A stretch of DNA of 64,000 bases from Candidatus Doudnabacteria bacterium. Lineage in GTDB: Bacteria; Patescibacteriota; Doudnabacteria; UBA920. Within the stretch, counting starts at the first letter, position 1; each line of letters opens with the position of its first letter. The DNA is taken from the NCBI GenBank assembly GCA_963768175.1, contig CAVYGQ010000001.1:840717-904716 (forward strand), in the 5' to 3' direction. Under the pieces are notes generated by a model. The model searched no databases, was not told where the DNA came from, and worked only from the letters and a program-made list of their open reading frames with translations. Position numbers and translations under genes: made by a program. Shown piece after piece: positions 8,682 to 64,000 of the stretch.

Positions 8682-9434
8682 TTATTTTGTTTCCGCCTTA
8701 TCCCACATATACCAAAACCATTTACGATAGCTGTCGGCCAAATCCTTACTGTGCAAAATAAAGAATACAACATTATCAGAAAGCCTAAATAGTTCCAGGC
8801 CGGTGTAGGTAACTACATAGTCGCCAAAGACATGAAAAATGGAATTTGTGGAATATTCTTTTGGCAGAAAACGATATTTTAAAAGTCCCGGCCAGGTTTT
8901 GGCAAAATCTGGCGCCTGGGTTTTGATTTCATGATCAAATAATTGGTGAAATTTAATTTTTTTCCTGGCGGCTTCTTTAAAAAACGCCTGCCTGCTGGCT
9001 TCCAGTTTCGGTTCAAACCAGCCGCCTTTGGCCCCTACAACAAAATTTTCCTCACCAACGCGCAAAACATCCCGCCAAAGATTTTTTTGCCCTTCCAAGC
9101 CCCGATAAATATAGGCTTCTTCCGGGGCAATGCGACGGGTGAATTTCTTTTTTAAATCAGGAAGTATTTTTCCTAGGCTGGTTTGTTTTTCCGCCAGTAA
9201 TTCCGTCAGCTTGTCTGGGTCAACTGCATTGTAGAGATTTTCCGAAGATGAAAAAATCTCAAAGACTAAGCCTTTGTCTATAAGCCGGGCAATGGCATCA
9301 TAGGCATTGCGGCGGTGAATTTTGGCACTAACAGCTATCTTGCTAATACCCGCTTCCCCTGTTTCCACAAGGGATTCGTAAATTTTGGCTTCATTTGGCG
9401 AAAGCCCTAAGCTTAGGAATAAATCTTGGTTCAT
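8682..9434 (-). CDS. TrmB-like winged-HTH transcriptional regulator (paralog 1)
   Basis: 250 aa. N-terminus LGLSPNEAKIYESLVETGEAGISKIAVSAKIHRRNAYDAIARLIDKGLV is typical of the TrmB HTH. Confidence 0.75.
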   Translation of the reverse strand: MNQDLFLSLGLSPNEAKIYESLVETGEAGISKIAVSAKIHRRNAYDAIARLIDKGLVFEIFSSSENLYNAVDPDKLTELLAEKQTSLGKILPDLKKKFTRRIAPEEAYIYRGLEGQKNLWRDVLRVGEENFVVGAKGGWFEPKLEASRQAFFKEAARKKIKFHQLFDHEIKTQAPDFAKTWPGLLKYRFLPKEYSTNSIFHVFGDYVVTYTGLELFRLSDNVVFFILHSKDLADSYRKWFWYMWDKAETK

Positions 9435-9570
9435 ATAATGTGGTGATGATTGCTACCATGTGGCGCTATTGGCCACTCAATATAGATAATATATGCTTAT
9501 CTGTCAACCGTCAACCCCGCCGCTCGCGAGCGGCGGGTCAAGAAACGGCTCTGATAGAAGGAGGAATACA

Positions 9571-9894
9571 ATGCTTGATCAAGAGTTGAAGAGTTCTGCG
9601 ATTGCCCAAAACCCTCTCTTGGAACCGATGCTCGGGCGGAGTTCGTATACCTGCACGATTTTCGTGATTGATCTCCTTGGGGGGAAATCGGATAACTTTA
9701 GGATTTCAGACGAAGTTCTGGAGCAAATTCGAAAGAGGGTGGAGGGGGCGGAGGATGCGACCTACTACATCATCCACTTCATCCCCAGAGACTTTGAAGT
9801 TAGTAGTCTTGAGGACTTGCCTGAGTCCGAGAAAAAGAAGGTTCGCGAAGCGCTTAACCAAGCACCCTTTCCTGTTTGTATCGTTTGGGTTTAG
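9571..9894 (+). CDS. Hypothetical protein (107 aa), GC-rich islet A
   Basis: ATG at 9571 is preceded by GAAGGAGG (9557-9564). The track ORF 9493-9894 is the same frame with a longer start. No family recognised. Confidence 0.55.
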   Translation: MLDQELKSSAIAQNPLLEPMLGRSSYTCTIFVIDLLGGKSDNFRISDEVLEQIRKRVEGAEDATYYIIHFIPRDFEVSSLEDLPESEKKKVREALNQAPFPVCIVWV

Positions 9895-9967
9895 GCTAAC
9901 TATCGTGTGAGGTCGCTAGTACGAGCGAAGCTTGGGCGAGCTAGTGGGAGATTAAGAAAGGGGTAAT

Positions 9968-10552
9968 ATGAAAGCGGTACTGTTTTTGGCCATTTGTCTC
10001 ACCATCCCCGCTTCGGCCCAGGACTGGCAGACGCGGGACAGCCTGCACGTGCAGGCGGACGTCAGCAAAAATTGGTTCGTCTCCGGCTGGTCGGTGACCA
10101 ACCTGCGGACCGAAACCCCCAACAACACCAACCTGTTCGCAGGCGCAGGCTACCGCGGCAAAAACTGGTGGCTGGAGGCCATAGTACAGCACCAGTGGAA
10201 CACTAAGGCTAACCAGTGGATGCTGGACTTCCGGTTCAACAAGCAGACCGAACGGTGGCGCTTGTATGCCGAGGTCTCGCCTTTTCTGATCAAGAAGGCC
10301 TTCTACGAGTACGTTATTGTAGAACGGCGGACTTGGAAAGGCTTCTCGTTCGGCGCGGAGACCGAGAACACGCACCAGATTGGGCCGGACATGATCGCAA
10401 TAGGCCCTAGGGTTAGTCGCAAGCTCGGCCGGTTTGCTGGCTTTGATGCATCGGCCGCTATTGCGGTTCGGCTTAGCCCTGTCGGTGGGCATACTGAACC
10501 GCGGTTGTCCCTGACGTTCAACCGCCGGCTTTATTTGAGAGACCGCAAGTAG
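9968..10552 (+). CDS. Secreted beta-rich (outer-membrane beta-barrel-like) hypothetical protein, GC-rich islet A
   Basis: 194 aa. Signal peptide MKAVLFLAICLTIPASA-QD. Alternating aromatic/polar strands (WFVSGWSVTNL, WWLEAIVQHQW, WMLDFRF, RLSLTFN). SD AAAGGGG lies upstream. The overlapping minus ORF 9941-10492 is judged a high-GC artefact. Confidence 0.6.
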   Translation: MKAVLFLAICLTIPASAQDWQTRDSLHVQADVSKNWFVSGWSVTNLRTETPNNTNLFAGAGYRGKNWWLEAIVQHQWNTKANQWMLDFRFNKQTERWRLYAEVSPFLIKKAFYEYVIVERRTWKGFSFGAETENTHQIGPDMIAIGPRVSRKLGRFAGFDASAAIAVRLSPVGGHTEPRLSLTFNRRLYLRDRK

Positions 10553-10572
10553 CGCGCGGTCTCTCTTTTTTA
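10537..10572 (+). terminator. Rho-independent terminator
   Basis: GAGAGACCGC aagtagcgc GCGGTCTCTC followed by TTTTTT. Confidence 0.7.
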
Positions 10573-10622: not shown

Positions 10623-11357
10623 ATGCAAGATAAGTTTGGCGGAAAAGAACCAAAGTATTACGATATTTTTACTGGTTTGTTTGTGGCAATATTGCTGATT
10701 TCAGAAATTACCTCTACAAAAATTGTGTCTTTGGGGTTTATCCAAACAGCAGGCGCCGCGGTGCTGTTCCCTATCTCTTACATTTTTAGCGATATTTTAA
10801 CCGAAGTTTACGGCTACGCCAGAGCCAGGCGCGTCATGTGGATCGGCTTTGCGTCTTTGGTATTGCTTTCAGCAATCTTAATTATTGTCCAGTATCTGCC
10901 GCCGGCGCCCTCCTGGCACAACCAGGCCGCTTACGACGTGATTTTGGGTGTTGTGCCCAGAATTTCCTTTGCCAGCGTGATAGCTTATTGGGCCGGCGGT
11001 TTTGCCAACGATTTAGTCTTGGCCAAAATGAAGCTTTTGACCAAGGGCAAATATTTGTGGACGCGCACCGTGGGCTCCACCGTGGTTGGCCAGGCCGTGG
11101 ACACTTTTTTGTTCCTTAGCATCGCGTTTTATGGTACCTTGCCCAACGCGGTTATTTTACAAATTATCTTCAGCTTTTATTTGTTTAAGTGCGGTTATGA
11201 AGTCGTAGCCACCCCGATTACTTATTTTGTGGTCAATAAATTAAAAAAGGCCGAAGGCCTGGATGTGTTTGATTACCATACCAATTTCAACCCTTTCAAG
11301 TTCAAGGTTGAAAATTCGGTAGACCAAGGGGCATCCTTGGACCCGGAACAATCTTAG
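10623..11357 (+). CDS. yhhQ: Queuosine-precursor transporter (YhhQ/VUT, DUF165 family)
   Basis: 244 aa multi-TM protein. FPISYIFSDILTEVYGYARARRVMW is the conserved family motif. Confidence 0.8.
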   Translation: MQDKFGGKEPKYYDIFTGLFVAILLISEITSTKIVSLGFIQTAGAAVLFPISYIFSDILTEVYGYARARRVMWIGFASLVLLSAILIIVQYLPPAPSWHNQAAYDVILGVVPRISFASVIAYWAGGFANDLVLAKMKLLTKGKYLWTRTVGSTVVGQAVDTFLFLSIAFYGTLPNAVILQIIFSFYLFKCGYEVVATPITYFVVNKLKKAEGLDVFDYHTNFNPFKFKVENSVDQGASLDPEQS

Positions 11358-12795: not shown

Positions 12796-12872
12796 GGGCT
12801 AGTAGCTCAGCTGGTTAGAGCACGTCTCTTATAAGGACGGGGTCGATGGTCCGAATCCATCCTAGCCCACCA
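12796..12872 (+). tRNA. tRNA-Ile (anticodon UAU), CCA encoded
   Basis: Hand-folded cloverleaf: GGGCTAG/CTAGCCC acceptor, anticodon stem CGTCT/GGACG, loop CTTATAA. T loop is TCCGAAT (C at position 55). Confidence 0.85.
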
Positions 12873-13220: not shown

Positions 13221-15686
13221 TTAAATTATCGTCGCACTCGCCACTTTATCTCCCTCATCCAGCCTCATTACCCTTACGCCTTGGGTGGCGCGGCCTAATG
13301 TGGAAACTTTGTTCAGTGGCGTGCGGATGGTTTGGCCGGATTTGGAAATTATGACCAAGTCGTGCTCTTCACTGTTGTTTAAAATATGCATGCTGACAAT
13401 TTTCCCGGTCTTGGGCGTAACTTTTACGGTTTTAATGCCGCTGCCGCCGCGCTTTTGCACTTTATAATACGACGCTTCGGTTTTTTTACCCAAACCGTTT
13501 TCCGTAACCACCAGAACTTCCAGAGTTTTTACATCCACGCTTTTGCGGATAATATCCATGCTGATAATCTTGTCGTCTTTTTTCAGGCGCATGCCGGTAA
13601 CGCCGCTGGCGTTTCGGCCCATGGCCCGGACGTCCTTCTCGCTAAAGCGGATGGCTTGGCCGTTTTCCGTGGACAGCATAATTTGGTCTTCGCCACTGGA
13701 GGTTTCCACCCACTTTAATTCATCGGCGCCTTTTAGGGAAATAGCTATCATGCCGCTGCGCCGTACTTTACTGAATTCGTCGCGGCTGGTTTTTTTAATC
13801 AGTCCGTTTTTGGTGGCCATAACCAGGAATTTGGCGTTGTCTTTTTTGGAAAAAGTAAGCACGGCTTGCGAAGTCTCGCCGCTTTGCAGCTGCAGGAAAT
13901 TCACCAAAGCCTGGCCTTTGGAAACGCGCGTGCCCTCGGGTAGCTCGTAAACTTTGGTCTGGAATACCCGTCCTTTGTTGGTGAAAAAGAGAATATCGTC
14001 GTGGGTATTGGAAGAAATAAGCTTTTCCACCACGTCTTCTTCTTTTAAGGTTTGGCCGATCACGCCTTTGCCGCCGCGGCTTTGGGTTTTGTAGGTGTCC
14101 GGCGCCAGGCGCTTGACATAGCCGGATTTGGTAATGGTAATAATTACGTTACTTTCCGGAATCAGATCTTCGGCAGAGAAGCTTCCAATGGCATTTTTTA
14201 TTACTTGCGTCCGGCGTTCGTCGCCAAAGCGAGACTTCATATCTTCCACCTCACTTCTAATAATTCCCAAAATTTTCTTCTTGGATTGCAAAATACCTTC
14301 CAATTCTTCTATTAAATTCTTTTTTTCTTTTAATTCGTCGTCAATTTTTTTACGCTCCAGGCCGGCCAAAGTTTGCAGGCGCATTTCCAAAATCGCGTCC
14401 GCCTGGATGTCCGTGAGCTTGAATTTTTTGATTAAATTGACTTTGGCTTCTTCCTTGGTGGGTGATTTTTTGATGGTGTTTATAACCTCATCAATACGGT
14501 CCAGGGCTTTTTTTAAGCCTTCCAGAATGTGGGCGCGTTCTTTGGCCTTTTTGAGTTCAAATTCCGTGCGTTTGCGCACCACAATTTCGCGGTGCTGCAA
14601 ATATTTTTCCAGGACAGTTTTTAAATTCAGGACATGGGGCTCAATGCCGTCTACCAAAGCCAGCATGTTCATGTGGAAAGATTCCTGGAGTTGGGTGTAG
14701 GAAAACAGCTGGTTTAAAATTTTGTTGGGCAACCCGTCTTTTTTTATGTCTATGACAATGCGCACGCCGTCTTTGTCGCTTTCGTCGCGTACGTCGCGGA
14801 TGCCTTCTATTTTTTTATCGCGGACCAGTTCGGCAATTTTTTCAAGTAAGGTGGCTTTGTTCACGCGGTAAGGAATCTCGTGGACCAAAATTTGGTAAGC
14901 GCCGGATTTGCTTTCTGTAATTTCCGTTTTGGCGCGCATCACAATACTGCCTTTGCCCGTGGCATAGGCGTTCTTAATGGCCGCGATGTCGTAAATTATG
15001 CCGCCGGTGGGGAAGTCCGGTCCCTTAACAAATTCCATTAGGTCTTCGGTAGTGGCTTCCGGGTCGTCAATTAGTTTAACAATGGCATCGCAAATTTCGC
15101 CTAAGTTGTGGGGCGGGATGTCTGTGGCCATGCCTACGGCAATGCCGAGCGTACCGTTAAGCAACAGATTAGGCAGTTTGCCCGGCAAGACCACTGGCTC
15201 TTTGCGTGTGGCGTCATAGTTGTCGCGCCAGTCCACGGTTTCTTTATCCAAGTCTACCAACAATTCTTCGGCCAAAGCGGACATGCGGGCTTCGGTGTAA
15301 CGCATGGCCGCGGCGCCGTCGCCGTCCATGGAGCCAAAGTTCCCCTGTCCGTCTATTAGCGGATAGCGCATGGCAAACAGCTGGGCCATATGGACCATGG
15401 AGTCGTAAACCGCAATATCGCCGTGGGGATGGTACTTGCCCAACACGTCTCCGACTACGGCCGCGGATTTGCGGAATTTGACGTTGTGGCGCAGTCCCAG
15501 TTCGTGCATCACGTATAAAATGCGCCTGTGCACGGGCTTTAAGCCGTCGCGGACATCCGGCAGGGCGCGGCTGACAATTACGCTCATGGCGTAATCCAAA
15601 TACGATTCCTGCATTTCCGTCTGGATGTCGCGCTGCTTGATTTCCCCGATGTCGGTGCTAAGTTCTGCTTTGGAATCTTTAGGCAT
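13221..15686 (-). CDS. gyrA: DNA gyrase subunit A
   Basis: [27 protein letters not shown], followed by C-terminal beta-pinwheel repeats. The ATG at 15686 (MPKDSK) is preferred over the TTG at 15701 used by the ORF track. Confidence 0.95.
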
Positions 15687-15760
15687 AAAGGTAATGAACA
15701 AAAATTAAAAAAATGACACAAATGAGCAAAAATGAACTGTGGTAATTTCCGTCATTTTTA

Positions 15761-16683: not shown

Positions 16684-16802
16684 ATAATGAATTGTATCAT
16701 TTTTTAGGCAAAAAGAAAAGGGCAAAATAAGGCAAAAACAGTCTTGACTTTTAAGAAAATTTGCCATATTCTTAACTGTTGGAGAATTGTTGAGGAGGCA
16801 CT

Positions 16803-17084
16803 ATGTACCTTGAAGTAGGGTTATTTGGCTTCGTTATCATAAAGGAGGGACCCTCTTCTTTTGCAGATATCGAAGTCGAGCTCGTGAGGCAAGAGCTGGT
16901 TGGTCGGGGGGTGATTTTTGACCTCACCGGCCAGCAGGCCGACCCGAGCGAGGTCAAGAAGATTGCCATGGCGCTGCGCGTGCCGTGGATTGTCGTCGGG
17001 AGTGGTGCCGACGGCCTGGAAGGCCACACTGCCCAGACCGTTGAGCAGGCGGAGGACCAGCTCATGAGAGGGTATGGGAGCTGA
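16803..17084 (+). CDS. Hypothetical protein (93 aa), GC-rich islet B
   Basis: ATG preceded by GAGGAGG. A GC-rich hairpin GGGGTTGG..CCAACCCC follows the stop. The antisense ORF 16772-17125 is judged less likely. Confidence 0.5.
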   Translation: MYLEVGLFGFVIIKEGPSSFADIEVELVRQELVGRGVIFDLTGQQADPSEVKKIAMALRVPWIVVGSGADGLEGHTAQTVEQAEDQLMRGYGS

Positions 17085-17129
17085 GACTTTCTCGACGGGG
17101 GTTGGTTGTGCTGTGCGCCGGCCAACCCC

Positions 17130-18648: not shown

Positions 18649-18882
18649 TTACATTCCGGCCGGTTTGTTCGGCATCATAGGAGACGATGACGAACACGAT
18701 TTACAGTTGGCTTTGTGGGTGAATAACTCGTAAAGAGCGCCGAGGCCTACGAGCACATAAACAATTCTGGCAAGCGTTTCGCCAAGGTAAGTTACGACAT
18801 TAACACCAAACAATCCGACTATCAGCCAGACCAGCCCTCCAATTATAACCAGTATCCAGGCAATCATGTGTAGAGCTTTCAT
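18649..18882 (-). CDS. DUF378-family small membrane protein
   Basis: MKALHMIAWILVIIGGLVWLIVGLFGVNVV...LVGLGALYEL. The ATG at 18882 lies 8 nt after AAGGGGG. The track ORF starts at GTG 18891. Confidence 0.7.
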   Translation of the reverse strand: MKALHMIAWILVIIGGLVWLIVGLFGVNVVTYLGETLARIVYVLVGLGALYELFTHKANCKSCSSSSPMMPNKPAGM

Positions 18883-26621: not shown

Positions 26622-26695
26622 TGGAGCGGCTAACGGGAATCGGACCCGTCCCCCAACCTTGGCAAGGTCGCGTACTACCACTATACTATAGCCGC
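26622..26695 (-). tRNA. tRNA-Gly (GCC), CCA encoded
   Basis: Minus strand: GCGGCTA..TAGCCGC acceptor, anticodon arm CGACC TTGCCAA GGTTG. T arm is ACGGG TCCGATT CCCGT (C at position 55). Confidence 0.85.
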
Positions 26696-26720
26696 GTAAA
26701 ATTATTATATCAGATTTTTT

Positions 26721-26796
26721 TGGTGCCGGGCCCCAGAGTTCGAACTGGGCACGCCTGCCTCTTCAGGGCAGCGCTCTACCGATGAGCTAGCCCGGC
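26721..26796 (-). tRNA. tRNA-Phe (GAA), CCA encoded, atypical T arm
   Basis: Minus strand: GCCGGGC/GCCCGGC acceptor, anticodon arm CTGCC CTGAAGA GGCAG. The T arm CCCAG TTCGAACT CTGGG needs an 8-nt loop or a bulged stem. Confidence 0.75.
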
Positions 26797-26938
26797 GTAA
26801 TAAATTTGTACTGTTTCTTAACTCGTCGTCTAACTCCTCGCTCGAGACACTCGCCTCGCTTTAACGTTCGTGGTTGCTTGAGGCCGTTCTACGGCCGAAA
26901 CCACGAGCGAGCTTTGACGTTAGTCAAAACGAGTTGAG

Positions 26939-27013
26939 TGGTGGGCAATGTAGGGATTGAACCTACGACCCCTTCCGTGTAAAGGAAGTGCTCTACCACT
27001 GAGCTAATTGCCC
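26939..27013 (-). tRNA. tRNA-Val (UAC), CCA encoded
   Basis: Minus strand: GGGCAAT/ATTGCCC acceptor, anticodon arm CTTCC TTTACAC GGAAG, T arm GTAGG TTCAATC CCTAC. Confidence 0.9.
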
Positions 27014-27496: not shown

Positions 27497-28132
27497 TCAG
27501 GCCGTTGGGAACAAGTAGGCCAAGATCTCATCGTGGGTAGCTTGGCCAATCTTCCCTGCCGACAGGTATAGTCCTAGCAGTTCTGATATCCGCCAAGCTA
27601 CGTAGCCTTTATAGTTCGCATTGGCGAGCTCGGCCATGCCGCCCTGCTCCCGGTCCACGAGCATGAAGATACCCGCGACATGGAGACGTTCGGCTTCTAA
27701 CACCTTAATGGACGCCAGTTTGGAATCCGCTTTGGTGATCAGGTCATCGAAGAGAGCCACGCGCTGGCCAGGCTGGTAAGCGCCGTCAATGTTGGCGCCA
27801 GAGCCGTGTGTCTTCATCTCTCGTGGAGTGATCATTGGTATCGTGGTAAAACTGGAGATTAGCGTAACCAGCGGAGTGGCGGCGGTCGGTACGTCGGCAA
27901 CCAAGTCACAGGTCACGCCTTCCATCATTTCTGTTAGGAGCCATGCGGTGTCCACCAGCAGCGTTGGAAACGAGCGGAGCAGGCGGAAGTTCAGGTAGAA
28001 TGGTGAGAGCGGGGCGTCGGGGTTTTTTTCGTGTAACTTGAGACGAAACCCTTTGCCTTGAGGCGACCTGGACTTGTCCAGGAAGATGCCGGCGTCAAAC
28101 CACGCCAGCGCGAGAGTTTCTTTGTCGATCAT
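27497..28132 (-). CDS. Orotate phosphoribosyltransferase-like PRTase, GC-rich islet C (second copy)
   Basis: From ATG 28132: MIDKETLALAWFDAGIFL...KLHEKNPDAPLSPFYLNFR...VALFDDLITKADS (PRPP-binding motif). The track ORF start at 28222 overlaps the upstream gene and is rejected. Confidence 0.7.
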   Translation of the reverse strand: MIDKETLALAWFDAGIFLDKSRSPQGKGFRLKLHEKNPDAPLSPFYLNFRLLRSFPTLLVDTAWLLTEMMEGVTCDLVADVPTAATPLVTLISSFTTIPMITPREMKTHGSGANIDGAYQPGQRVALFDDLITKADSKLASIKVLEAERLHVAGIFMLVDREQGGMAELANANYKGYVAWRISELLGLYLSAGKIGQATHDEILAYLFPTA

Positions 28133-28136: not shown

Positions 28137-28937
28137 TTAGTCCTGGCAGGCCTCGATGATGTTGTCGATGATGAGCTCCACCGCCGCCAGAGGATCCTGG
28201 GCGGCAGTAATGTCGCGGCCAACTACAATGCCGTTAGCGCCGCCGCTGATGGAGTTTCCTGGCGTTGCCACTGCCTTCTGCTCTTGCTTTGCGGAGCCAG
28301 GCAGTCGGACGCCAGGGGTGTAAATCAGGAAGTCCGGCCCGCAGGCTTCGCGGATAGCGGCGACTTCCAAAGGTGAGGCGATGACACCGTCGCAGCCGCA
28401 TTCCTGGGCCAGCTTGGCGTATCGAACAACGAGCTTGAGCCGATATGGCTCCTCGACCCCTTCTGGTTTCAGGCCAAGATCCACCAGGTCTTCCTCGCCG
28501 AGGGTGGTCAAGAGAGTTACGGCCAGCAGGAGAGGCTTGCGTTGCAGGTCGAGCTTAGCGGCGGTGGTGTCGATGGCTTCGCGGGCGGCTTTCATAGCCG
28601 CCTTGCCGGCAAAGGCGTGCATGTTGAACATAAGCGGTCGGAGACGGGTCAGGGCTGTTGCCGCGCCCTTGACCGTATTGCCTATATCGGCGAGTTTGCA
28701 GTCCATGAAGTCGGTGCCGACAAGCTCGCCAAACAGGTCCCGCAGGTCCTCGAGCGCCGTAAGCGCATCATCGTAGTCGGCGGTCACCAGAGTGGTAAAC
28801 ACCGAAAGTATGAACTCAAAGCCGATCTTGAACCCGCGCACCTTGCCTTTCAGCATGGTGACGAGCCCTGTGGCTTTGATCACATTGTCTACATCCAAGG
28901 CCACGATAATCCGTGACCCCGCGTCTTTTCGAGTCAT
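28137..28937 (-). CDS. Orotidine-5'-phosphate decarboxylase-like protein, GC-rich islet C (second copy)
   Basis: 266 aa. RIIVALDV, FKIGFEF and DCKLADIGNTV are OMPdecase family motifs. Confidence 0.75.
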   Translation of the reverse strand: MTRKDAGSRIIVALDVDNVIKATGLVTMLKGKVRGFKIGFEFILSVFTTLVTADYDDALTALEDLRDLFGELVGTDFMDCKLADIGNTVKGAATALTRLRPLMFNMHAFAGKAAMKAAREAIDTTAAKLDLQRKPLLLAVTLLTTLGEEDLVDLGLKPEGVEEPYRLKLVVRYAKLAQECGCDGVIASPLEVAAIREACGPDFLIYTPGVRLPGSAKQEQKAVATPGNSISGGANGIVVGRDITAAQDPLAAVELIIDNIIEACQD

Positions 28938-29113: not shown

Positions 29114-30004
29114 ATGAGCTCCGCATCCAAGGTAACCTTAGTGTCCCCGAATTTTTCCGATATCTTTACCCCAAATATTGAAATTGGCCAGTTTCCGGAC
29201 GGTGACAGCCACGTGCGCATCCCATTGATTGCGGAGTGCAAAGATGCCGATGTAGTGGTTTTTCACAGGCTTTACCCCAACCAGAACAGCTTACTGGTGA
29301 GCCTGCTTTTTATTTTGGACTCATTAAAAGAAGTTGGAGCAAAACATATAAGCGTGGTAGCGCCGTATTTGCCGTATTCCCGCCAGGATAAAAAAAAGCT
29401 CAACGGCGAAGTGGCAAGCGCGTACGTGGTTTGCAACATGCTTGCCCGGGCCGGCTGCGGCAAGCTGGTGGCGTTTGACTGCCATTTTTTAAATAATGAA
29501 GGTCCGGCGGAGTTTAACGGTTTGAAAATTCAAAACATATCCATGGGCAAGGCTTTGGTGGAGTACGCCAAGACAGCCGCGTTTTTGGGCGAGGACTGCG
29601 AGGTGATTTCGCCGGATATGGGCGCAAACTATTTGGTTAAAGACCTTGGGGGCAAGTCTTATAAAAAATCCAGGAAAGAATATGACGGTGAAAAAATTAA
29701 TTATCGCGACGTGGAAACCATGGACGGCGACTTTGACGTTAAGGGGAAAAACGTCTTGCTTTTGGACGATATGATAAGCACTGGCGCCACCATGCTCCGG
29801 GCTTTGGAAAAATTAACGGCTAGTGGAGCAAAGAAAATCTGCTGCGCCGCCACCCATGGGTTGTTCTTATACAATTGCGTGGATAAAATCAAAAAGTTTA
29901 CGGATTGTGTTTATTCCACGGATACGATTATTAACGACAACGCCAAAGTTTCCATCAAAGAAAAGTTGGCGGACATTGGTAGCAACCAGCCGACGTTATT
30001 TTAA
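29114..30004 (+). CDS. prs: Ribose-phosphate pyrophosphokinase
   Basis: 296 aa. FPDGDSHVRI, APYLPYSRQDKK and VLLLDDMISTGATM motifs. Confidence 0.85.
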   Translation: MSSASKVTLVSPNFSDIFTPNIEIGQFPDGDSHVRIPLIAECKDADVVVFHRLYPNQNSLLVSLLFILDSLKEVGAKHISVVAPYLPYSRQDKKKLNGEVASAYVVCNMLARAGCGKLVAFDCHFLNNEGPAEFNGLKIQNISMGKALVEYAKTAAFLGEDCEVISPDMGANYLVKDLGGKSYKKSRKEYDGEKINYRDVETMDGDFDVKGKNVLLLDDMISTGATMLRALEKLTASGAKKICCAATHGLFLYNCVDKIKKFTDCVYSTDTIINDNAKVSIKEKLADIGSNQPTLF

Positions 30005-30020
30005 ACCTATCGGCCAAATT

Positions 30021-30647
30021 ATGGAAAATATTCTGGATATCTTAAAAAAATCCGGGGCGATACTAGACGGCCATTTTGTTTTGACGTCCGGCAAGCACGC
30101 CAACGCTTATTTGAATAAAGACGCGCTTTATCCGCACATTCAAGATACCTCGGATGTCTGCAGGATGTTTGCCGAAAAAGTAAAAAATTTGGATATTGAT
30201 ACGGTTGTCGGCCCGGCTTTGGGGGGAATTATCCTTTCCACTTGGACGGCGCATCACCTTTCTAAATTTAAGGGCAAAGAGGTATTTGGCGTTTATACGC
30301 AAAAAGCCGCTGACGGCAGCATGCAATTTGCCAGGGGCTACGATAAATTTGTTGCCGGTAAAAAGGTTTTGGTGGTTGAGGACTTAACTTCTACCGGCGG
30401 GAGCGCGAAAAAAGTCGTGGATGCCGTAAAGGCCATTGGCGGCATGGTGGTTGGGGTTTGCGTTATGGTTAACCGCAATCCCAAAGAGGTGACCGCGGAT
30501 TATTTTGGCGTGCCGTTTTTTCCGCTCGGTACTTTTGAAGTTGAGGCTCATGAGCAAGTCGATTGTCCCATGTGCAAAGCCGGTGTACCGATAAATACAG
30601 AAGTCGGGCATGGGAAAGAGTATTTGGAAGCTAAAGGGTTGTTATAA
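30021..30647 (+). CDS. pyrE: Orotate phosphoribosyltransferase (native low-GC copy)
   Basis: ATG at 30021: MENILDILKKSGAILDGHFVLTSGKHANAYLNK ... VLVVEDLTSTGGS. The track ORF 29823 start overlaps prs. Confidence 0.85.
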   Translation: MENILDILKKSGAILDGHFVLTSGKHANAYLNKDALYPHIQDTSDVCRMFAEKVKNLDIDTVVGPALGGIILSTWTAHHLSKFKGKEVFGVYTQKAADGSMQFARGYDKFVAGKKVLVVEDLTSTGGSAKKVVDAVKAIGGMVVGVCVMVNRNPKEVTADYFGVPFFPLGTFEVEAHEQVDCPMCKAGVPINTEVGHGKEYLEAKGLL

Positions 30648-30659
30648 TTTTGCAACTTT

Positions 30660-31358
30660 ATGCTGACGGAAACAAAAGTTATCTTATCGGCCGATGGTTA
30701 CGATAAAGAGGGATTGCTTGGACTTGTGGAAAAAATCGGCAAGAAAGTTTATTGTGTGAAAATCCATAATTTGTATGACCGGTATGGGCCGCAAATTGTA
30801 AATGATTTGCGCAGAGCAGGGGCGCGAAAAGTTTGGGTGGACGTAAAATTACACGATATCCCCAATACGGTTAAATTGAGGGCGCGAGCCTTAGCCGAAT
30901 CCGGCTGTGAGATTATTACGGTGCACGCTTCGGGCGGTATGGAGATGATGCGGGCGGCCAAAGAAGGTTTTAATAAAGGCAAGGTTTTTGCCGTAACAGC
31001 GCTGACCTCCCTGAACAACGAGGCTATTAAGATTATTTATGGCGCCCAAGATGCCAAAGAATTGGTCATGCGTTTGGCGCTTTTGGTTAAAATGTCGGGG
31101 GTGGACGGTTTGGTATGTTCTCCGCAAGAAGTCCCGGCATTGCGCGCAGTTCCCGATTATAATGATTTAGAGCTGGTTGTACCGGGCATCCGCTCGGCAG
31201 GGGTCGGTGTGGATGACCAAAAGCGTTTTGATACCCCTTCAAATGCCTTAAGAGCCGGAGCGAATTTTTTAGTAATCGGCAGGCAAATAACTAAAGCCCC
31301 CAATCCGGTGGAGGCCGTAGATGCGTTGGAGTCTGAAATTGCGCAAGCCGTAAAATAA
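30660..31358 (+). CDS. pyrF: Orotidine-5'-phosphate decarboxylase (native low-GC copy)
   Basis: 232 aa. VILSADG, CVKIHNLY, DVKLHDIPNTV and ITVHASGG motifs. Confidence 0.85.
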   Translation: MLTETKVILSADGYDKEGLLGLVEKIGKKVYCVKIHNLYDRYGPQIVNDLRRAGARKVWVDVKLHDIPNTVKLRARALAESGCEIITVHASGGMEMMRAAKEGFNKGKVFAVTALTSLNNEAIKIIYGAQDAKELVMRLALLVKMSGVDGLVCSPQEVPALRAVPDYNDLELVVPGIRSAGVGVDDQKRFDTPSNALRAGANFLVIGRQITKAPNPVEAVDALESEIAQAVK

Positions 31359-31364
31359 TGGTAA

Positions 31365-32435
31365 ATGTATAAATTATTTAGGCCGTTAATCTTTAAAGCT
31401 TCGTCCGATCCCGAAGACATACACAGGGTGGTGATGGGGCTTTTGCATATGGTTGGCAGCATTAGTCCACTTGGCTGGGCGGAGCGGCGGGTTTTTGATT
31501 TTGCCGACAAAAGGCTGGCACAAAACCTTTTTGGTTTGAATTTTAAAAATCCGGTCGGTCTGGCTGGAGGTTTTGATAAGCATGGGGAAGCCATTTTAGG
31601 CTTGGCCAATGTAGGTTTTGGGTTTTTGGAAATCGGCACGGTCACACGTTTTGGTCAGCCGGGCAACCCCAGGCCGCGCATTTTTAGATTACAAAAAGAT
31701 GAAGCCTTAATTAACCGTATGGGTTTTAACAACGAAGGCGCGGATTTTTTGGCAAGCAAATTGTCAAAAACAAAAAAATTAACAATTCCGCTGGGCATTA
31801 ATTTGGGTAAGTCTAAAGTTACCGAACTGGCCAATGCGGCGGAAGATTATTTGTATTCCTTTTCCAAACTTTACGATTATGGCGATTATTTTGTGGTTAA
31901 TATTAGCTCGCCCAATACCTCGGGGCTGCGGCAGTTGCACGAAAAAAGTTTTTTGGTTGATATTTTGTCGGGTTTGAACGGTTACAGATTAAGGCAGCCG
32001 GTAATAAAACCGGTCTTGGTAAAAACCGTTGTGGACTTGTCTTTGGAGGCAATTGACGAGGCATTGGAAGTTTGCAAAAACCAAAATGTTGACGGTATAA
32101 TTATTAGCAACACTTCAATTGGTAGGGATGGCTTCAAAATTAAAACCGATGAAACAGGAGGTTTAAGCGGCAAGCCGATAAGACAGAAATCTACTGATTA
32201 TATAAAATATATTCATCGGCAGGCTCCAGGCCTTCCAATTGTAGGTGTTGGTGGAATTTTTAGTGCGGAAGATGCTTACGAAAAAATTAAAGCGGGAGCA
32301 TCGCTTGCCCAAATTTATACCGGATTGATTTACGAAGGCCCGGGAGTGGTAAAAAAAATAAACCAGGGTTTGGTAAAATTGCTTGAGCGCGACGGGTTTA
32401 AAAATATTGGTGAAGCGGTTGGGAAAGGAAACTAA
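31365..32435 (+). CDS. pyrD: Dihydroorotate dehydrogenase (quinone), class 2
   Basis: 356 aa. GLNFKNPVGLAGGFDK, GFGFLEIGTVT..GQPGNPRPRIFRL and IVGVGGI motifs. Confidence 0.9.
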   Translation: MYKLFRPLIFKASSDPEDIHRVVMGLLHMVGSISPLGWAERRVFDFADKRLAQNLFGLNFKNPVGLAGGFDKHGEAILGLANVGFGFLEIGTVTRFGQPGNPRPRIFRLQKDEALINRMGFNNEGADFLASKLSKTKKLTIPLGINLGKSKVTELANAAEDYLYSFSKLYDYGDYFVVNISSPNTSGLRQLHEKSFLVDILSGLNGYRLRQPVIKPVLVKTVVDLSLEAIDEALEVCKNQNVDGIIISNTSIGRDGFKIKTDETGGLSGKPIRQKSTDYIKYIHRQAPGLPIVGVGGIFSAEDAYEKIKAGASLAQIYTGLIYEGPGVVKKINQGLVKLLERDGFKNIGEAVGKGN

Positions 32436-35750: not shown

Positions 35751-36482
35751 TTATATGGTATTCCAAAAATGGTTGAGAATTATGCTTACGGTTTCATATA
35801 TATCGGCGCTTTCAACCACCAGCCCCAGCGAGCTGTCCCCTTCCTGGGTAATAAAAGCCACTTTTCCGTTATAGGCAAACATTTCATTTTTAAACGGAAA
35901 ATTTTGGGCTGGTATTAACTTGGTTTGCCTTAAAGCGAATTTGTCTTTTGATTGTAAATCTTGATAAAAGGGAATATCAGGGGCGATTATTTTTACAAAA
36001 TTTCCTTTTTTTACCCTTCTTTCCACGTATTCTTCGCCCCAATAGTCTCGGATTTTTTCATCAGGCAGTTTTGTGGAAAGTACCTCTATATAGTTGGCAT
36101 GCTTGGATAAAATATCTTCATAAATTTCCTTAATGCCCTCAAGCCCTTGATATATCCTGACTGATGGTTTTTTGCCGGCATGGCTCTGGATAGCCAAAAG
36201 CTGTCCCATGATGTTATCTAAGGCATTCTCTTTTTGTTTAATCAATGGAAAAATATTCTGTGGGTCTTCCACGATGTATATTTTGCGTTTGCCTTTCAAA
36301 ATAGTTTTAATCAATCCTTTTTCTTTTAAGCTGTCTACGAGTTCATAAACCGTGGCGCGTTTTAATTTGGCATTATTAACCAGTTCCTGCATAGTCGCGG
36401 GACCGGTTTGCAGGCCGGCCAAGTAAAGAGCGGACTCTTTTTCGCTTAGTCCGATTTTTTGCAGGTTTTGTTCTAAATTCAT
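35751..36482 (-). CDS. TrmB-like winged-HTH transcriptional regulator (paralog 2)
   Basis: 243 aa. IGLSEKESALYLAGLQTGPATMQELVNNAKLKRATVYELVDSLKEKGLI. Confidence 0.75.
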   Translation of the reverse strand: MNLEQNLQKIGLSEKESALYLAGLQTGPATMQELVNNAKLKRATVYELVDSLKEKGLIKTILKGKRKIYIVEDPQNIFPLIKQKENALDNIMGQLLAIQSHAGKKPSVRIYQGLEGIKEIYEDILSKHANYIEVLSTKLPDEKIRDYWGEEYVERRVKKGNFVKIIAPDIPFYQDLQSKDKFALRQTKLIPAQNFPFKNEMFAYNGKVAFITQEGDSSLGLVVESADIYETVSIILNHFWNTI

Positions 36483-36632
36483 AAAGTATCGGTAAAACCG
36501 ACGATATTTTAATTACAATATAACCTTATTTTAAAGGATATTTTTAATATTGTCAATAATATATATCAAGATTATTGATATATTTAACAAATTAGTGTAT
36601 AGTGTTTGGTCAACCTTAAGGAGGGTTGGGTT

Positions 36633-37277
36633 ATGAGAATATTAGTCGTTGACGACGAGCCCATCAATTTGCTCGCCGCGCAGCAGACTTTGGTTGGGCA
36701 CGAGTTAGTGCTCGTTGACGGTTACGATAAGGCAACGGTACTTTTGGAGCCGGCCGCATACGAAGAAGAGATCACAAAACTCCAGGGAGGGGAAGGCCAC
36801 CGCATTAGCTACCGGCAAGTGCAAGAGATGTTACGCAAGTCTACCAAAGTGTTTGATGCCGTCTTAACTGACCTGCTCATGCCCCCAGGCAAGAGGGGGC
36901 AATCACCGCGGTCTCGCGAAACGTTCCAGAACCTCCCATTTCCTTCGGGGGTGATGCTCGCCCTGCACGCGATCCGGCAAGGCGCAAAGTATGTCGCTGT
37001 GTTCACAAGCGGGATCAACCATCACCACAATCCCGCGGTCTGGATGATGGAGCCGCTCAGGTGGGGCTGGAACGCTACGCCGCAGAAGTTCTTGGTCAAC
37101 GGAGCCATTTTGGGATTCTTTGATGAGTGCGATGGCGGTCGCGTCCCTGTAGATGGCACTGTGTGTCAGGAATGCAATGGCAAAGGTTGCCTAACATATT
37201 GTCATGAAACTGGCAAGCTTTTTGCCAAGAACTGGGGAAGGGTTCTTGAGGAGCTCATCAAGCACCACAACAGCTAG
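36633..37277 (+). CDS. Stand-alone receiver (CheY-like)-related protein with C-terminal zinc knuckle, GC-rich islet D
   Basis: ATG 36633 follows TAAGGAGGG. MRILVVDDEP ... FDAVLTDLLMP ... VAVFTSG follows the REC beta1/beta3/beta4 pattern. C-terminal CQECNGKGC..C. Homologous by eye to 40433-40876. Confidence 0.65.
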   Translation: MRILVVDDEPINLLAAQQTLVGHELVLVDGYDKATVLLEPAAYEEEITKLQGGEGHRISYRQVQEMLRKSTKVFDAVLTDLLMPPGKRGQSPRSRETFQNLPFPSGVMLALHAIRQGAKYVAVFTSGINHHHNPAVWMMEPLRWGWNATPQKFLVNGAILGFFDECDGGRVPVDGTVCQECNGKGCLTYCHETGKLFAKNWGRVLEELIKHHNS

Positions 37278-37328: not shown

Positions 37329-37396
37329 CCAAAAATAAACCCCCTTATGGGGGTTCGGCGTTATCTCAGCGTCGCTATCAGCGATTGATCAGCGGT

Positions 37397-39417: not shown

Positions 39418-40174
39418 TCAAGACATTTTAGCGCTTGGACTTGCGTCCCAAATTGTCTCAAACAACTTAATTTCTCCAGCCACGATATCCGGGCTTTCAA
39501 TAATTACCGTTACCAATTCTTTTTTGGAACTGAAGATTGCCACTTTATTTCCGTAAATTAGTTTTGAACTGTTATATAAATGGTTTTCCGGCAAATATTT
39601 TACTTCCCTTAGAAGTTCGGCGTGATTGGCTGTTAAAAAAGATTCCGGCATCTGGGATTTAAAATATAAAGCTTTAAAGTTTATACGTTTTTTCAATCTG
39701 GTTGGGATATAGTAGTTTAAATCCCAGATCCTCGCCGATGACTTTATGGATTTCGCTAATTGAGCCAATGTGCCTGACGGTGGAATTGAAAGTTTTGAGG
39801 GAATCCTCCGAGGCAATAAAGTATCCTTCTTTGCCTTCGTAGTAAGTAATCTGCGGTTTCAGATCTGGTTTTTGCGCCAGACTGTTTAATTGCGGCAAGA
39901 TACTTTTTAAGTCGTCTAATTCTTTTTCTGTTTTAGATGCCAAAATATGCGGCGGTGTGGCCACAAATTTTAACCCGCTCCGCATTTTAAAACTGCCCAT
40001 TAAACCCTTTTTCTCCAAAGCCTGGAAAATTACATAAGCCGAAGTTCGTTTTAGTTGCGCTTCCAGCGCCAATTCCGACATCCCCGCCTCACCAAGTTTA
40101 AGCGATGCCAAATACAAAGCCACTTCGCCGTCTTCCAGCCCTAATTCTTTAAGAGTTTGTTTAATGTCTTGCAT
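39418..40174 (-). pseudogene. TrmB-like regulator (paralog 3) split by a frameshift
   Basis: ORF 39674-40174 holds the HTH (LGLEDGEVALYLASLKLGEAGMSELA..KRTSAYVIFQALEKKGLM). ORF 39418-39816 continues the family C-terminal domain in another frame (WDLNYYIPTRLKKRINFKALY.. compare WGEEYVERRVKKGNFVKII in paralog 2). The frames switch near 39723-39733. This could be a sequencing error. Confidence 0.65.
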
Positions 40175-40432
40175 ATTAAATACAAATAAATTGATGCCTG
40201 AGCTTGTCGAAGGCTCAATTTATTTGTCCCTTCGACTTTGCTCAGGGGACAAATAAATTTAAATTTGACGTTTTTTACGTCAACAGTATATCAAATCTAA
40301 TAAAAATAAGCAAATAAAGGCAAAATATATAATAAATTATGCCACAATTATTGACGTTATGTCAATTTTGATGTATTGTTATCGGTCAAAACAAAAACAC
40401 CTGACGAGGTTAACAACGCAAAGGAGGTAGTT

Positions 40433-40876
40433 ATGAATATTTTGGTTGTAGAAGACGATCCGAAGCATATGAAGGAGGCTGTTGAGGTCATTCAAGCCGC
40501 CGGACACGAAGTGATACAGGCAACTGATATGTATAGAGCCAGGGAGTATCTCTACGATGACCGCCCCGACGGAGTAATTACTGACCTTTTTATTCCGGAT
40601 GGTGCGGGAGGAGTAAATGAAGATGCGGATCAGCCGCGAGGCCTAGGAATTGTCTTAATGGCGCAGCAGGAAGGCATTCCTTGCATCATCTGCACCGCAG
40701 GATATCACCACGGATCCAAGTACAACTGGATCTGCGGACTCGGGCGGAGGTTGCACTGGCCACCGATGGTAGATCAGCTTCAGGATCGGCACAACTACGA
40801 GGTGGAAAGCCAGTCGAAAGACTGGCAAGAAGCGCTCGACACCCTGGTCAAGATCATAGTGGCCAAGGGATATTAA
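40433..40876 (+). CDS. Stand-alone receiver (CheY-like)-related protein, GC-rich islet E
   Basis: ATG 40433 follows AAAGGAGG. MNILVVEDDP ... PDGVITDLFIP ... CIICTAGYHH. Confidence 0.6.
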   Translation: MNILVVEDDPKHMKEAVEVIQAAGHEVIQATDMYRAREYLYDDRPDGVITDLFIPDGAGGVNEDADQPRGLGIVLMAQQEGIPCIICTAGYHHGSKYNWICGLGRRLHWPPMVDQLQDRHNYEVESQSKDWQEALDTLVKIIVAKGY

Positions 40877-61935: not shown

Positions 61936-61989
61936 AGAGTAGTGAATCCGCCTTCGCTAAAGCTACGGCGGACAAGTAGGATAAAACAC

Positions 61990-62235: not shown

Positions 62236-62236
62236 T

Positions 62237-63285: not shown

Positions 63286-64000
63286 ATGGAAGAAGAATTG
63301 CAAAAATTAGGCTTAAGTGAGCACGAAGCCAAAATATATTTGGCGGCTTTGAGTTTGGGTCCTTCATCGGCGGCCCAAATATCGACGCAGACTAGTATAA
63401 AGCGGCCCACTGTTTATTTGGCTTTGGACAGTTTAATTAAGCAAGGATTAGTTTTAGAAAATTTTGCCGGGAAAAAGAGGTTGTTTGAGGCTGAGAAGCC
63501 TCAAAAGTTAGAAAAGCTGACCAAACGAATGAGGCGGCAAGTTATTGATGCGGAAATTTTGTTAGAAAGCGTATTGCCGGGACTAATTAAACTTCCTAAA
63601 CAATACTCACAAGAGCCGAAAGTAAGTTTTTATTCAGGAGAAGAAGGTTTAAAAAATATTGCGCTTGAAATTTCAGCTTGCTCATCTTCCTGGTATGCTT
63701 TTGGCTCCGGCGCAAAAATATTGGAAAAACTTGCAAAATTCAAAAGGATGGACATACTTTACGATTCTTGGGATATACGCAGTAGCCCGAGCAGGCCGAA
63801 AATTTATATAATTACAGACGCAGGAGTTTTTTCTTTGGGAAAAGAATGGGAAAAAAACAAAACTCCCTGGCGGGAAGTAAAGATTTTACCCGGGATCATT
63901 GGTGTCGGCTCCGGACTTATTATTTATGAAGATAAAGTGGCAGTATTGAGTCTTGAAAATAAACCTTTTGTTGCGGTAATTAAGAGCAAAGAGGTTGTGG
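63286..64000 (+). CDS. TrmB-like winged-HTH transcriptional regulator (paralog 4), 3' end beyond window
   Basis: My translation: MEEELQKLGLSEHEAKIYLAALSLGPSSAAQISTQTSIKRPTVYLALDSLIKQGLV..., open to the window end. Confidence 0.75.
   Translation, partial: MEEELQKLGLSEHEAKIYLAALSLGPSSAAQISTQTSIKRPTVYLALDSLIKQGLVLENFAGKKRLFEAEKPQKLEKLTKRMRRQVIDAEILLESVLPGLIKLPKQYSQEPKVSFYSGEEGLKNIALEISACSSSWYAFGSGAKILEKLAKFKRMDILYDSWDIRSSPSRPKIYIITDAGVFSLGKEWEKNKTPWREVKILPGIIGVGSGLIIYEDKVAVLSLENKPFVAVIKSKEVV

Follow-up and report, generated by a model that had tools for sequence, protein, structure and literature searches.

The 64,000-nt stretch of the Candidatus Doudnabacteria contig CAVYGQ010000001.1 analysed here (hereafter the window) raises the question why, in this ultra-small bacterial genome, short islets of GC-rich DNA, whose genes start behind strong Shine-Dalgarno (SD) sequences, are embedded among genes that mostly start without them. 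A sequence-only reading had marked six such islets (A to F) in a low-GC background, four of them divergently beside a gene for a TrmB-like regulator, and had proposed repeated horizontal acquisition from a donor of higher GC content, conceivably a host organism, or alternatively a distinct expression class of genes. We favour, with no better than even confidence, the interpretation that the islets represent a clade-restricted pool of cargo genes which is shuffled laterally within the Patescibacteria, often lies beside a divergent TrmB gene and is translated via SD sequences among core genes that are translated independently of them. The islet pattern is that of a clade-wide gene class rather than of DNA from a host organism. 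Assembly chimeras are excluded for islets A to D, and there are strong arguments against a recent transfer from a host outside the Candidate Phyla Radiation (CPR). No description of SD-led, TrmB-adjacent cargo with a shifted codon usage was found in the searchable literature.

Composition and translation signals of the islets

The GC content of the window is 0.440 (300-nt windows, standard deviation 0.055), i.e. moderate rather than low, and islets A to E lie above it (0.537, 0.586, 0.576, 0.541 and 0.502, in this order). Islet F (0.471) is ordinary in this respect, with 30% of the windows of equal length matching or exceeding it. At the level of single genes, with 51 background genes of the window as the reference set (GC 0.440±0.033; GC content at third codon positions, GC3, 0.482±0.062), A2 (z = 4.2), B (4.3), the two islet C genes pyrE' (3.7) and pyrF' (4.7) and D (3.1) are strong outliers with a GC3 of 0.65-0.75, A2 having the highest GC3 of any gene in the window. 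E is a mild outlier (2.3), A1 a weak one (1.4), and F1 (0.3) and F2 (1.0) are none, so that the claim of six GC-rich islets holds strongly for A2, B, C and D, mildly for E and not for F. The hand counts of 60-nt samples that had accompanied this claim (37, 35, 17 and 25 of 60) were exact on recount. The compositional change-points of islets A to E are located within spacers or no more than ~70 nt from gene ends, in agreement with the earlier placement of the boundaries in intergenic spacers, and the steepest steps reach 0.37 in 150 nt; the step-up into islet A begins at 9508.

The islet genes are GC-rich because of their distinct synonymous-codon dialect. Background genes of all GC3 tiers prefer AAA (0.70-0.78), GAA (0.71-0.74) and TTT (~0.8), keep ATT and hardly use CTC (~0.05). 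In the islet genes these preferences are inverted (AAG 0.65, GAG 0.55, TTC 0.53, ATC 0.49, CTC 0.30, CGG 0.33), and the preference for NAC codons is strong (AAC 0.76, CAC 0.81). The cargo dialect thus consists of G/C-ending codons for Lys, Glu, Phe, Ile, Asn and His together with CTC for Leu and CGG for Arg. An index of this dialect amounts to 0.48-0.64 and is common to all seven genes from A1 to E, the codon-usage z-scores of which range from -2.1 to -4.0. The GC profile deviates strongly for A2, B, C and D, and the dialect differs qualitatively from that of the host.

Two core genes contain GC peaks that are equally high and had been missed by the sequence-only reading, namely the N-terminal part of gyrA (14901-15700, maximum 0.607) and the G-domain of infB (37951-38525, maximum 0.587). 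Both peaks use the host dialect (index 0.25 and 0.18, respectively) and therefore differ in kind from the islets. The host dialect is likewise kept by the native pyr operon (0.11-0.35), by DUF378, though it is SD-led, and by infB. Since the cargo dialect occurs in all genes from A1 to E and is absent from the gyrA and infB peaks, the native pyr operon and DUF378, the islets are not merely the upper tail of the host bias. Codon bias due to high expression was ruled out as the cause of the GC content, as gyrA, infB and the ribosomal protein genes keep the host dialect.

The strength of SD sequences was scored as the duplex energy (in kcal/mol) of positions -20 to -4 with the anti-SD sequence. 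The background genes are essentially devoid of SD sequences, with a mean energy of -1.1 compared with -1.9 at random positions, and only 8% of them reach -6. The claim of strong SD sequences at islet genes in an SD-poor background was verified in a stronger form than originally put forward, with energies of -11.7 for A1, -12.2 for B, -12.6 for D, -12.9 for E and -11.4 for F2, with -7.3 for A2. The comparatively weak sites of the two islet C genes (-4.0 for pyrE', -5.3 for its partner) were also verified, as were the two exceptions among the otherwise SD-poor low-GC genes, infB (-8.7) and DUF378 (-12.0). An independent scan of the window for a strong SD sequence followed by a start codon and an open reading frame (ORF) recovered the SD-led islet genes plus DUF378 (18649-18882). 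The SD cores lie in AT-rich leaders and are thus no by-product of the GC content of the islets. In 24 of 32 non-identical cargo contexts from related genomes the SD core is located 5-7 nt ahead of the start, which argues for selection on pairing with the anti-SD sequence. Leaderless transcription of the core genes is not claimed here, given that -10-like hexamers are only ~3-fold enriched 0-12 nt from their starts and show no sharp peak.

The apparent SD sequence of infB is located inside a perfect 9-bp hairpin (CCTCTCCTT-aaa-AAGGAGAGG, ~39340-39362 on the minus strand) just upstream of the start at 39331, and it is not conserved upstream of infB in the related locus L002. The hairpin may be a terminator or an SD-sequestering structure rather than an ordinary ribosome-binding site.

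The host codon usage is peculiar in itself. Four-fold families favour GCC, GGC, ACC and CCG (GC 0.6-0.8 at conserved four-fold sites), and the A/T-rich two-fold families strongly favour AAA, GAA, TTT and ATT. Within gyrA and infB the GC content is higher in the conserved domains (N-terminus and G-domain, respectively) than elsewhere in the same genes. ARAGORN called a tRNA-Ile with the anticodon TAT at 12796-12872, and ATA accounts for 21-29% of the background Ile codons. Such a tRNA is uncommon in bacteria, in which ATA is usually read by a lysidine-modified CAT tRNA.

Distribution and age of the islets in related genomes

According to tblastx comparisons the window shows long collinearity with the loci L002 and L003, which belong to metagenome-assembled genomes (MAGs) of Doudnabacteria. 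The genes infB and rbfA are adjacent in both loci, whereas the window carries TrmB_D and D between them as a clean extra block of 1527 bp, the residual spacers of 119 and 59 nt corresponding approximately to the 179-nt spacer of L002. The entire block of TrmB_E and E is missing from L003; L002 keeps an ortholog of TrmB_E, and genes of 80 and 202 aa replace E. The MBL-rpsA spacers of L003, L014 and L017 do not contain islet B. On account of their absence from the same sites in relatives, B, D (together with TrmB_D) and E behave as accessory DNA. This does not hold for islet A, which is syntenic in L014, L015 and L017, nor for pyrF', which is present in L002 and L003.

A2 occupies the syntenic slot in L014, L015 and L017, and in L016 the trio of TrmB, small gene and A2 was detected in an unrelated neighbourhood. 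The identity at fourfold sites between the window and L015 is 0.52 for A2, 0.55 for gyrA and 0.53 for the adjacent Vut_1 gene (saturation expectation 0.32-0.35 for A2 and gyrA). Since the value of A2 matches those of its flanks, islet A has been co-inherited with them. The fourfold-site identities of A2 between the window and L017 and of pyrF' between the window and L002/L003 are 0.37-0.39 compared with 0.29-0.35 expected at saturation.

The composition of the islets recurs in related genomes. In four other CPR contexts with a background of 50-60% GC, homologues of D lie ~8-10 GC points above their host and are SD-led, and the genes for ribosomal proteins, AlaRS, UvrA and TrmB on the same contigs are neither GC-raised nor SD-led; in three of these four contexts a TrmB gene of 247 aa lies next to the D homologue or shortly upstream of it. 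Homologues of A2 in four further contexts behave likewise, so that D and A2 homologues together lie 6-15 GC points above their hosts and are mostly SD-led. The split in dialect between cargo, TrmB and core genes was observed in 10 of 11 locus comparisons, the exception being L007 from a 60%-GC genome, in which the cargo index (0.71) is below that of the core (0.81).

A scan of metagenomes with the TrmB_A alignment yielded 80 loci of 64-86% identity, and the 54 loci with a divergent ORF no more than 600 nt from the TrmB_A ortholog were used as survey set. The GC content of the cargo exceeds that of TrmB by 0.064 (49 of 54 loci, p = 5e-10) and that of other genes by 0.036 (30 of 40, p = 3.5e-5), and its dialect index is 0.47 compared with 0.34 for TrmB (43 of 53, p = 6e-8). 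SD energies of -8 or lower were found for 37 of 54 cargo genes and only 3 of 54 TrmB genes, with a mean of -4.0 for other genes. These contrasts persist in the 33 loci without a tblastn homologue of A2 beside TrmB, some of whose neighbours were later assigned to the A2 family by blastp. The TrmB_A slot is occupied by the A2 family in 27 loci and elsewhere by signal-peptide proteins, small ORFan-like proteins and, in one case, a canonical receiver domain.

Other cargo divergent to TrmB paralogues comprises a canonical receiver (PF00072, 78 bits), a radical-SAM/B12-binding protein and a histidine phosphatase, the sites being L022 1570-1956 (minus strand), L014 3047-4384, L016 11844-12551, L021 and L030. 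All of these genes are GC-elevated, and all are SD-led except for the radical-SAM gene of L014 (-0.9 at the called start).

Origin and expression of the cargo genes

Each of the islet units that could be resolved consists of a sigma70-like promoter, a leader of ~20-70 nt with a consensus GGAGG SD sequence and one or two small genes, with a putative GC-rich hairpin downstream in A, B and D and a head-to-head TrmB gene in four of the six units (A, D, E and F). Its predicted content includes a secreted or envelope β-barrel protein (A2), receiver-like proteins (D and E), small ORFans (A1, B, F1 and F2) and a second pyrF/pyrE pair (C). We propose that cargo enters, or is swapped at, intergenic slots by lateral exchange within the Patescibacteria. 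Presence or absence and replacement of cargo were observed directly; the donors would probably be GC-richer Patescibacteria, and the native dialect of such organisms, e.g. in L009 and L011, is similar to the cargo dialect. In a second step the adjacent TrmB-type protein would locally repress, or gate, the promoter region that regulator and cargo share, as the gene architecture and the palindromes described below suggest. Finally, the cargo mRNAs would reach the ribosomes by pairing of SD and anti-SD sequences, for which the tight and conserved spacing argues. In this way GC-rich mRNAs could be translated in a cell whose AU-rich mRNAs start SD-independently.

The divergent position of TrmB-like genes beside A, D, E and F, as originally reported, is well founded, with matches to Pfam PF01978 for the first three and similarity to TrmB_D for the fourth (Table 1). 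All four genes are of native composition and lack SD sequences. They resemble TrmB and TrmBL (PF01978), the sugar-sensing regulators of archaea, in the N-terminal winged helix, the length of ~250 aa and the position of a divergently transcribed local regulator; unlike those, they have no Pfam match in the C-terminal half, where no effector or sugar-binding domain of TrmB was found, and the adjoining genes are not sugar genes. The only NCBIfam match, to the equivalog of haloarchaeal TrmB, scored 23.3 bits with a cut-off of 500. TrmB_E consists of two pieces in different frames, explained either by a frameshift that made it a pseudogene, in which case E could be de-repressed, or by a sequencing error; its ortholog in L002 is intact (250 aa; 72% and 68% identical to the two pieces). 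An expansion of the TrmB family was considered and rejected, as 600 kb of related loci contained only six further paralogues; the presence of four TrmB genes in the 64 kb of the window is therefore not generalisable.

Divergent pairs of sigma70-like promoters were detected in the spacers of both D and E, in which the TrmB promoter abuts or overlaps the cargo promoter. The site upstream of TrmB_D is located at 36556..36528 (minus strand), and a sigma70-like site upstream of TrmB_A at 9507..9479 (minus strand) matches at 11 of 12 positions. The two -35 boxes in the E spacer form the palindrome TTGACGTTATGTCAA (40351-40365). Palindromes overlap the divergent promoter-like sites, each spacer having its own, and their location is suggestive of candidate TrmB operators. 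The motif GTCAAC was rejected as a shared operator because its reverse complement is the -35 box found in the divergently oriented promoters of the TrmB genes.

Several observations weigh against a laterally shuffled cargo pool. No donor of the islet genes was identified among the homologue searches, and the GC content of the cargo tracks that of its host (from 0.543 with a host at 0.44 up to 0.679 with one at 0.60) and does not point to a single donor value; its offset against other genes in the survey set is modest on average (+0.036). Islets A and C are old, to judge by their fourfold sites. As A2 and pyrF' are GC-rich in orthologues near synonymous saturation, a simple decay of a foreign signature is unlikely and a force that maintains the composition is favoured. 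Islets B and C have no TrmB neighbour. Neither a target duplication nor terminal or att repeats were found at the D junction, no integrase was detected among the neighbouring genes scanned with Pfam, and 2.9 million viral contigs contain no relatives of D and A2, on account of which a viral origin was rejected. The uncoupling of A2 and TrmB identities (rho = 0.02 over 356 locus pairs), which speaks for a shuffled pool, comes from a test of low power, since the TrmB identities cluster at 65-75%. Furthermore, an anti-SD motif was detected in only 48% of Parcubacteria (PMC9297842, Tsurumaki et al. 2022). A check of the anti-SD sequence CCUCC in the window and in ~900 kb of retrieved related loci revealed no 16S rRNA gene.

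The islet genes could instead form a native expression class maintained by selection, i.e. long-resident genes whose codons and SD sequences are kept by selection and are not of foreign origin; such selection could serve, for example, conditional translation that depends on the pool of tRNAs or on their modification, the stability of the mRNAs, or a burst of expression once repression by TrmB is relieved. We regard this as rather unlikely, and yet it stays a serious rival because high GC3 and dialect persist in the old, syntenic islets A and C at near-saturated synonymous divergence. The GC offset that tracks the host, the clearly constrained position of the SD sequence, the separation of cargo, TrmB and core genes (seen at 10 of 11 loci and again in the survey of 54 loci) and the single dialect of all seven islet genes are consistent with it as well. 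However, it does not easily account for the presence or absence of islets in the closest relatives, the swaps of cargo at the same slot, the (near-)ORFan status of A1 and B, or a dialect that differs from that of presumably highly expressed genes (ribosomal proteins, gyrA, infB) and is not shared by the SD-led host genes DUF378 and infB. The low cargo index in L007 and the uncoupled histories of A2 and TrmB also speak against it. The earlier suggestion of a distinct expression class is borne out in one sense, in that SD-led, TrmB-adjacent cargo recurs statistically in related genomes.

It seems improbable that the islets are what is left of integrated prophages or other mobile elements, in which the TrmB-like gene would be the repressor and the small SD-led genes would belong to the element. 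A repressor-like gene divergent to strings of small unknown genes in L007 and L013 would fit such an origin, as would the accessory distribution and the HicAB pair beside islet F. However, the units are only 0.3-1.5 kb long, the TrmB genes are host-like in composition, and orthologues of TrmB_A and TrmB_E are conserved at sites that do not vary; the searches for an integrase, for repeats or a target duplication at the D junction and for viral relatives were negative, as stated above.

Recent horizontal acquisition from a GC-richer, SD-using organism outside the CPR, such as the host of an episymbiont, is highly improbable in our view. The foreign GC content and codon usage, the strong SD sequences and the sharp boundaries in spacers would be expected from such a donor, and the outer-membrane-type β-barrel fold of A2 is typical of diderm bacteria. 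Against this, and in keeping with a refuting condition named in the sequence-only reading itself, pyrF', A2 and D have their nearest relatives within the same lineage: pyrF' shares 66% identity with Doudnabacteria proteins and matches nothing outside the Patescibacteria at more than 39%, the named homologues of A2 and D are exclusively from Patescibacteria in CPR-like contexts, and A1 and B are ORFans or nearly so. In addition, islets A and C are old and in synteny with related loci, many related genomes show this pattern as well, and the TrmB gene inside the inserted block is native in composition. Of the proposed repeated horizontal acquisition, the part that stands is the foreign dialect and the presence of B, TrmB_D with D, and E as extra DNA relative to related genomes; its recency is unsupported, A and C being old. 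Chimeric assembly or contamination, in which GC-rich fragments of other organisms were spliced in, would explain the abrupt compositional steps but has a negligible probability, as A, B, C and D are each covered across both junctions by separate contigs (99.98-100% identity) from the Logan re-assembly of run ERR10755942, so that these four are no chimeras, and as other MAGs and metagenomes contain orthologous islets with an unchanged gene order.

The cargo pool shares with genomic islands the atypical GC3 and codon usage, the sharp intergenic boundaries, the ORFan or narrowly distributed content and, for B, TrmB_D with D, and E, the presence or absence in relatives. In contrast to genomic islands, the islets are tiny (0.3-1.5 kb), lack integrase and att sites and do not abut tRNA genes; their homologues do not extend beyond the phylum, A and C are old, syntenic and unameliorated, the adjacent regulator is native in composition, and dozens of genomes show the same contrast at orthologous slots. 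The framework of amelioration, by which acquired genes with atypical GC content and codon usage are interpreted, is reportedly that of Lawrence and Ochman. Lineages that are poor in SD sequences but retain a small SD-led gene set, e.g. the Bacteroidota, are similar to the window in that most genes lack SD sequences and a minority has strong and well-spaced ones; unlike there, the SD-led minority of the window is mainly accessory cargo with its own codon dialect. Xenogeneic silencers (H-NS, Lsr2, MvaT, Rok) act genome-wide on AT-rich DNA. They offer no more than a functional analogy, in that newly acquired genes would be placed under a putative repression, and differ from the window, in which the regulators are local and the cargo is GC-rich.

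Tentatively, and with clearly less than even confidence, we suggest that two regimes of translation initiation exist side by side, an SD-independent one for the core and a strictly SD-dependent one for the shuffled cargo, that TrmB gate and SD leader together serve as an adaptor for foreign or exchangeable genes, and that the dialect is actively maintained. If true, many of the genes expressed via this adaptor would code for envelope and signalling proteins, possibly relevant to the symbiotic lifestyle. A large part of bacterial diversity belongs to the CPR/Patescibacteria, whose gene regulation and uptake of new genes are almost unexplored; the question is raised whether core and acquired genes are separated at translation initiation. 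The combination of a strong SD sequence, G/C-ending two-fold codons and often a divergent TrmB gene provides a signature for accessory genes of Patescibacteria, which picks out candidate surface and signalling proteins. For the curation of MAGs it follows that small GC-rich patches of this kind are real and should not be trimmed as contamination.

Features of the individual islets and their surroundings

Table 1. Position and properties of the islet genes, associated regulators and signals in the window, and of the Logan contigs that span the islets (SD, duplex energy in kcal/mol).
Feature	Position	Strand	Properties
TrmB_A	8682..9434	-	PF01978 52.1 bits (cut-off 25.6); GC 0.420; host dialect; without SD
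Palindrome in A1 leader	9516..9537	+	perfect, 11+11, GC-rich; CCCGCCGCTCG/CGAGCGGCGGG
A1	9571..9894	+	107 aa, near-ORFan; behind GAAGGAGG; SD -11.7; codon-usage z = -4.0
A2	9968..10552	+	194 aa, signal peptide, predicted β-barrel; GC 0.578, GC3 0.749, SD -7.3
Hairpin and T-run	~10538-10572		associated with A2; read directly from the sequence
Islet B	16744..17129	+	promoter-like site 16744..16772, leader with GAGGAGG, gene, GC-rich hairpin ~17097-17129
B gene	16803-17084	+	93-aa ORFan; GC 0.582, SD -12.2
pyrE' (islet C gene 2)	27497..28132	-	divergent, orotate phosphoribosyltransferase-like; GC 0.560, GC3 0.675, SD -4.0
pyrF' (islet C gene 1)	28137..28937	-	second, divergent orotidine monophosphate decarboxylase; PF00215; GC 0.596, GC3 0.715
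prs-pyrE-pyrF-pyrD operon	29114..32435	+	native composition, divergent from islet C; genes assigned by Pfam on Logan L020; NCBIfam equivalog cut-offs passed; dialect index 0.11-0.35
TrmB_D	35751..36482	-	PF01978 49.8 bits; GC 0.385; native composition; in block between rbfA and infB
Islet D	36575..37277	+	promoter-like site 36575-36603, leader with TAAGGAGGG, D gene
D gene	36633-37277	+	214-aa receiver-like protein with CxxCxGxG zinc knuckle; GC 0.543, SD -12.6
Hairpin	37337-37356	- (infB strand)	scan call; downstream of D
TrmB_E	39418..40174	-	PF01978 36.2 bits; two overlapping ORFs, 39674-40174 and 39418-39816
Islet E	40336..40876	+	overlapping divergent promoter-like sites, leader with AAAGGAGG, E gene
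E gene	40433-40876	+	147-aa receiver-like protein; GC 0.516, SD -12.9
F1	62620-62922	-	100 aa, overlaps F2; GC 0.449; contains CGFCKGSG
F2	62885-63130	-	81 aa, behind AAGGAGG; SD -11.4, GC 0.472, codon-usage z = -3.6
TrmB_F	63286..64000	+	divergent from F2; runs off window end; 28% identical to TrmB_D over 225 aa, E = 2e-21
Logan L001	4227-10906		100% identity; spans A
Logan L019	16603-18631		100% identity; spans B
Logan L020	26966-32692		99.98% identity; spans C
Logan L018	35480-38605		100% identity; spans D

The A2 family is predicted with high confidence to comprise small, signal-peptide-bearing transmembrane β-barrels similar to KdgM/NanC and restricted to Patescibacteria. The 26 homologues of A2 include only Patescibacteria among the named ones. 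The structural model (pLDDT 90) consists of a signal peptide and a small antiparallel barrel with 11 long strands, and its best structural matches are KdgM/NanC porins (4pr7 and 4fqe with TM-scores of 0.53-0.60, the NanC structures 2wjr and 2wjq with ~0.50; probability 1.0 in each case). Like these 12-stranded porins, A2 has a signal peptide followed by a small antiparallel barrel (TM-score 0.50-0.60), but it differs from them in the 11 strands detected, in the lack of a sequence-family match (no Pfam family at E <= 0.01) and in an identity of only 9-14% in the structural alignments. Such barrels are odd for Patescibacteria, a group generally considered to lack an outer membrane. The A2 barrel could reside in an unusual envelope or be delivered to the membrane of a host.

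Relatives of A1 in 1.8 billion representative proteins are limited to A1 itself, one 106-aa protein with 35% identity and one spurious match; its ORF was called identically on the Logan contig. The palindromic 12-mer CGCTCGCGAGCG is found inside longer GC-rich hairpins in the A1 leader (9521-9532) and in L002 (6833-6844). The L002 copy lies in the infB-rbfA spacer, the site at which TrmB_D and D are inserted in the window, which may be due to chance. As a repeat family the 12-mer was rejected, with one copy each in the window and L002 and 11% of shuffles giving one match. Directly downstream of islet A a gene for a Vut_1/YhhQ-type transporter was detected (10623-11357). This family is linked to the uptake of queuosine precursors, and queuosine affects the decoding of NAC and NAU codons. 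A link between this tRNA modification and the NAC-rich dialect of the cargo is conceivable.

The search for homologues of the B protein among 5.8 billion proteins returned none besides itself.

In islet C pyrE' begins 4 nt past the stop of pyrF'. Its product scored 74 bits on the NCBIfam orotate phosphoribosyltransferase models with a cut-off of 208, and no homologue was found in L002 or L003. PyrF' exceeds the cut-offs of PF00215 (139 bits, cut-off 27) and TIGR01740 (135.9, cut-off 92.3) and falls below that of the equivalog NF001273 (181.9, cut-off 193), on which the native PyrF scored 206.9. It is 33% identical to the native protein (30660-31358) and 66% identical to that encoded by the GC-rich pyrF of the MAGs L002 and L003, with next-best matches of no more than 39%. 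In these MAGs the GC content of pyrF' is 0.544 compared with a background of 0.42 (L002) and 0.614 compared with 0.48 (L003). The gene is located there beside the same RNHCP gene and tRNAs, and the remaining content of the pyr islet varies between genomes. In the window the tRNA cluster (26622-27013) lies ~0.5 kb from islet C beyond the RNHCP gene, and no islet abuts a tRNA gene. Islet C and the native operon, which includes a quinone-dependent dihydroorotate dehydrogenase, form two back-to-back copies of the last steps of uridine monophosphate synthesis; L002 instead carries GC-rich pyrF', a phosphoribosyltransferase gene, a pyrD-like gene and a pyrC-like gene.

D is predicted to be a protein with a divergent receiver-like domain. 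The family is rare, with 13 proteins of no more than 38% identity on CPR-like contigs. The model of D (pLDDT 83) yielded receiver domains as top Foldseek matches (3m6m_D with E = 7e-4, 2rdm, 3a0u), with TM-scores of only 0.29-0.54 and Rossmann-type enzymes interleaved among the matches, and D has no match to PF00072. In the alignment of the 13 sequences D8, D80, T125 and K199 are invariant, and the residue before D8 is D or E; we infer that they correspond to the canonical acidic pocket, phospho-acceptor Asp, Thr and Lys of receivers. An NHH motif is present in the D proteins, which carry different numbers of CxxCxGxG knuckles, from none up to several. The palindromic hairpin downstream of D may also stop D transcripts. 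E is a weak and distant relative of the D family and scored 30.6 bits on PF00072 (cut-off 30.2) over only 57 of 111 model positions.

No Pfam match was obtained for F1 and F2. From the translations F2 appears hydrophobic and membrane-like, and F1 seems to contain a zinc-knuckle motif. The latter, CGFCKGSG, is a knuckle of the DnaJ-type CxxCxGxG and is similar to the C-terminal part of the proteins of the D family. A HicB/HicA antitoxin-toxin pair is encoded immediately upstream of islet F, at 61942-62455.

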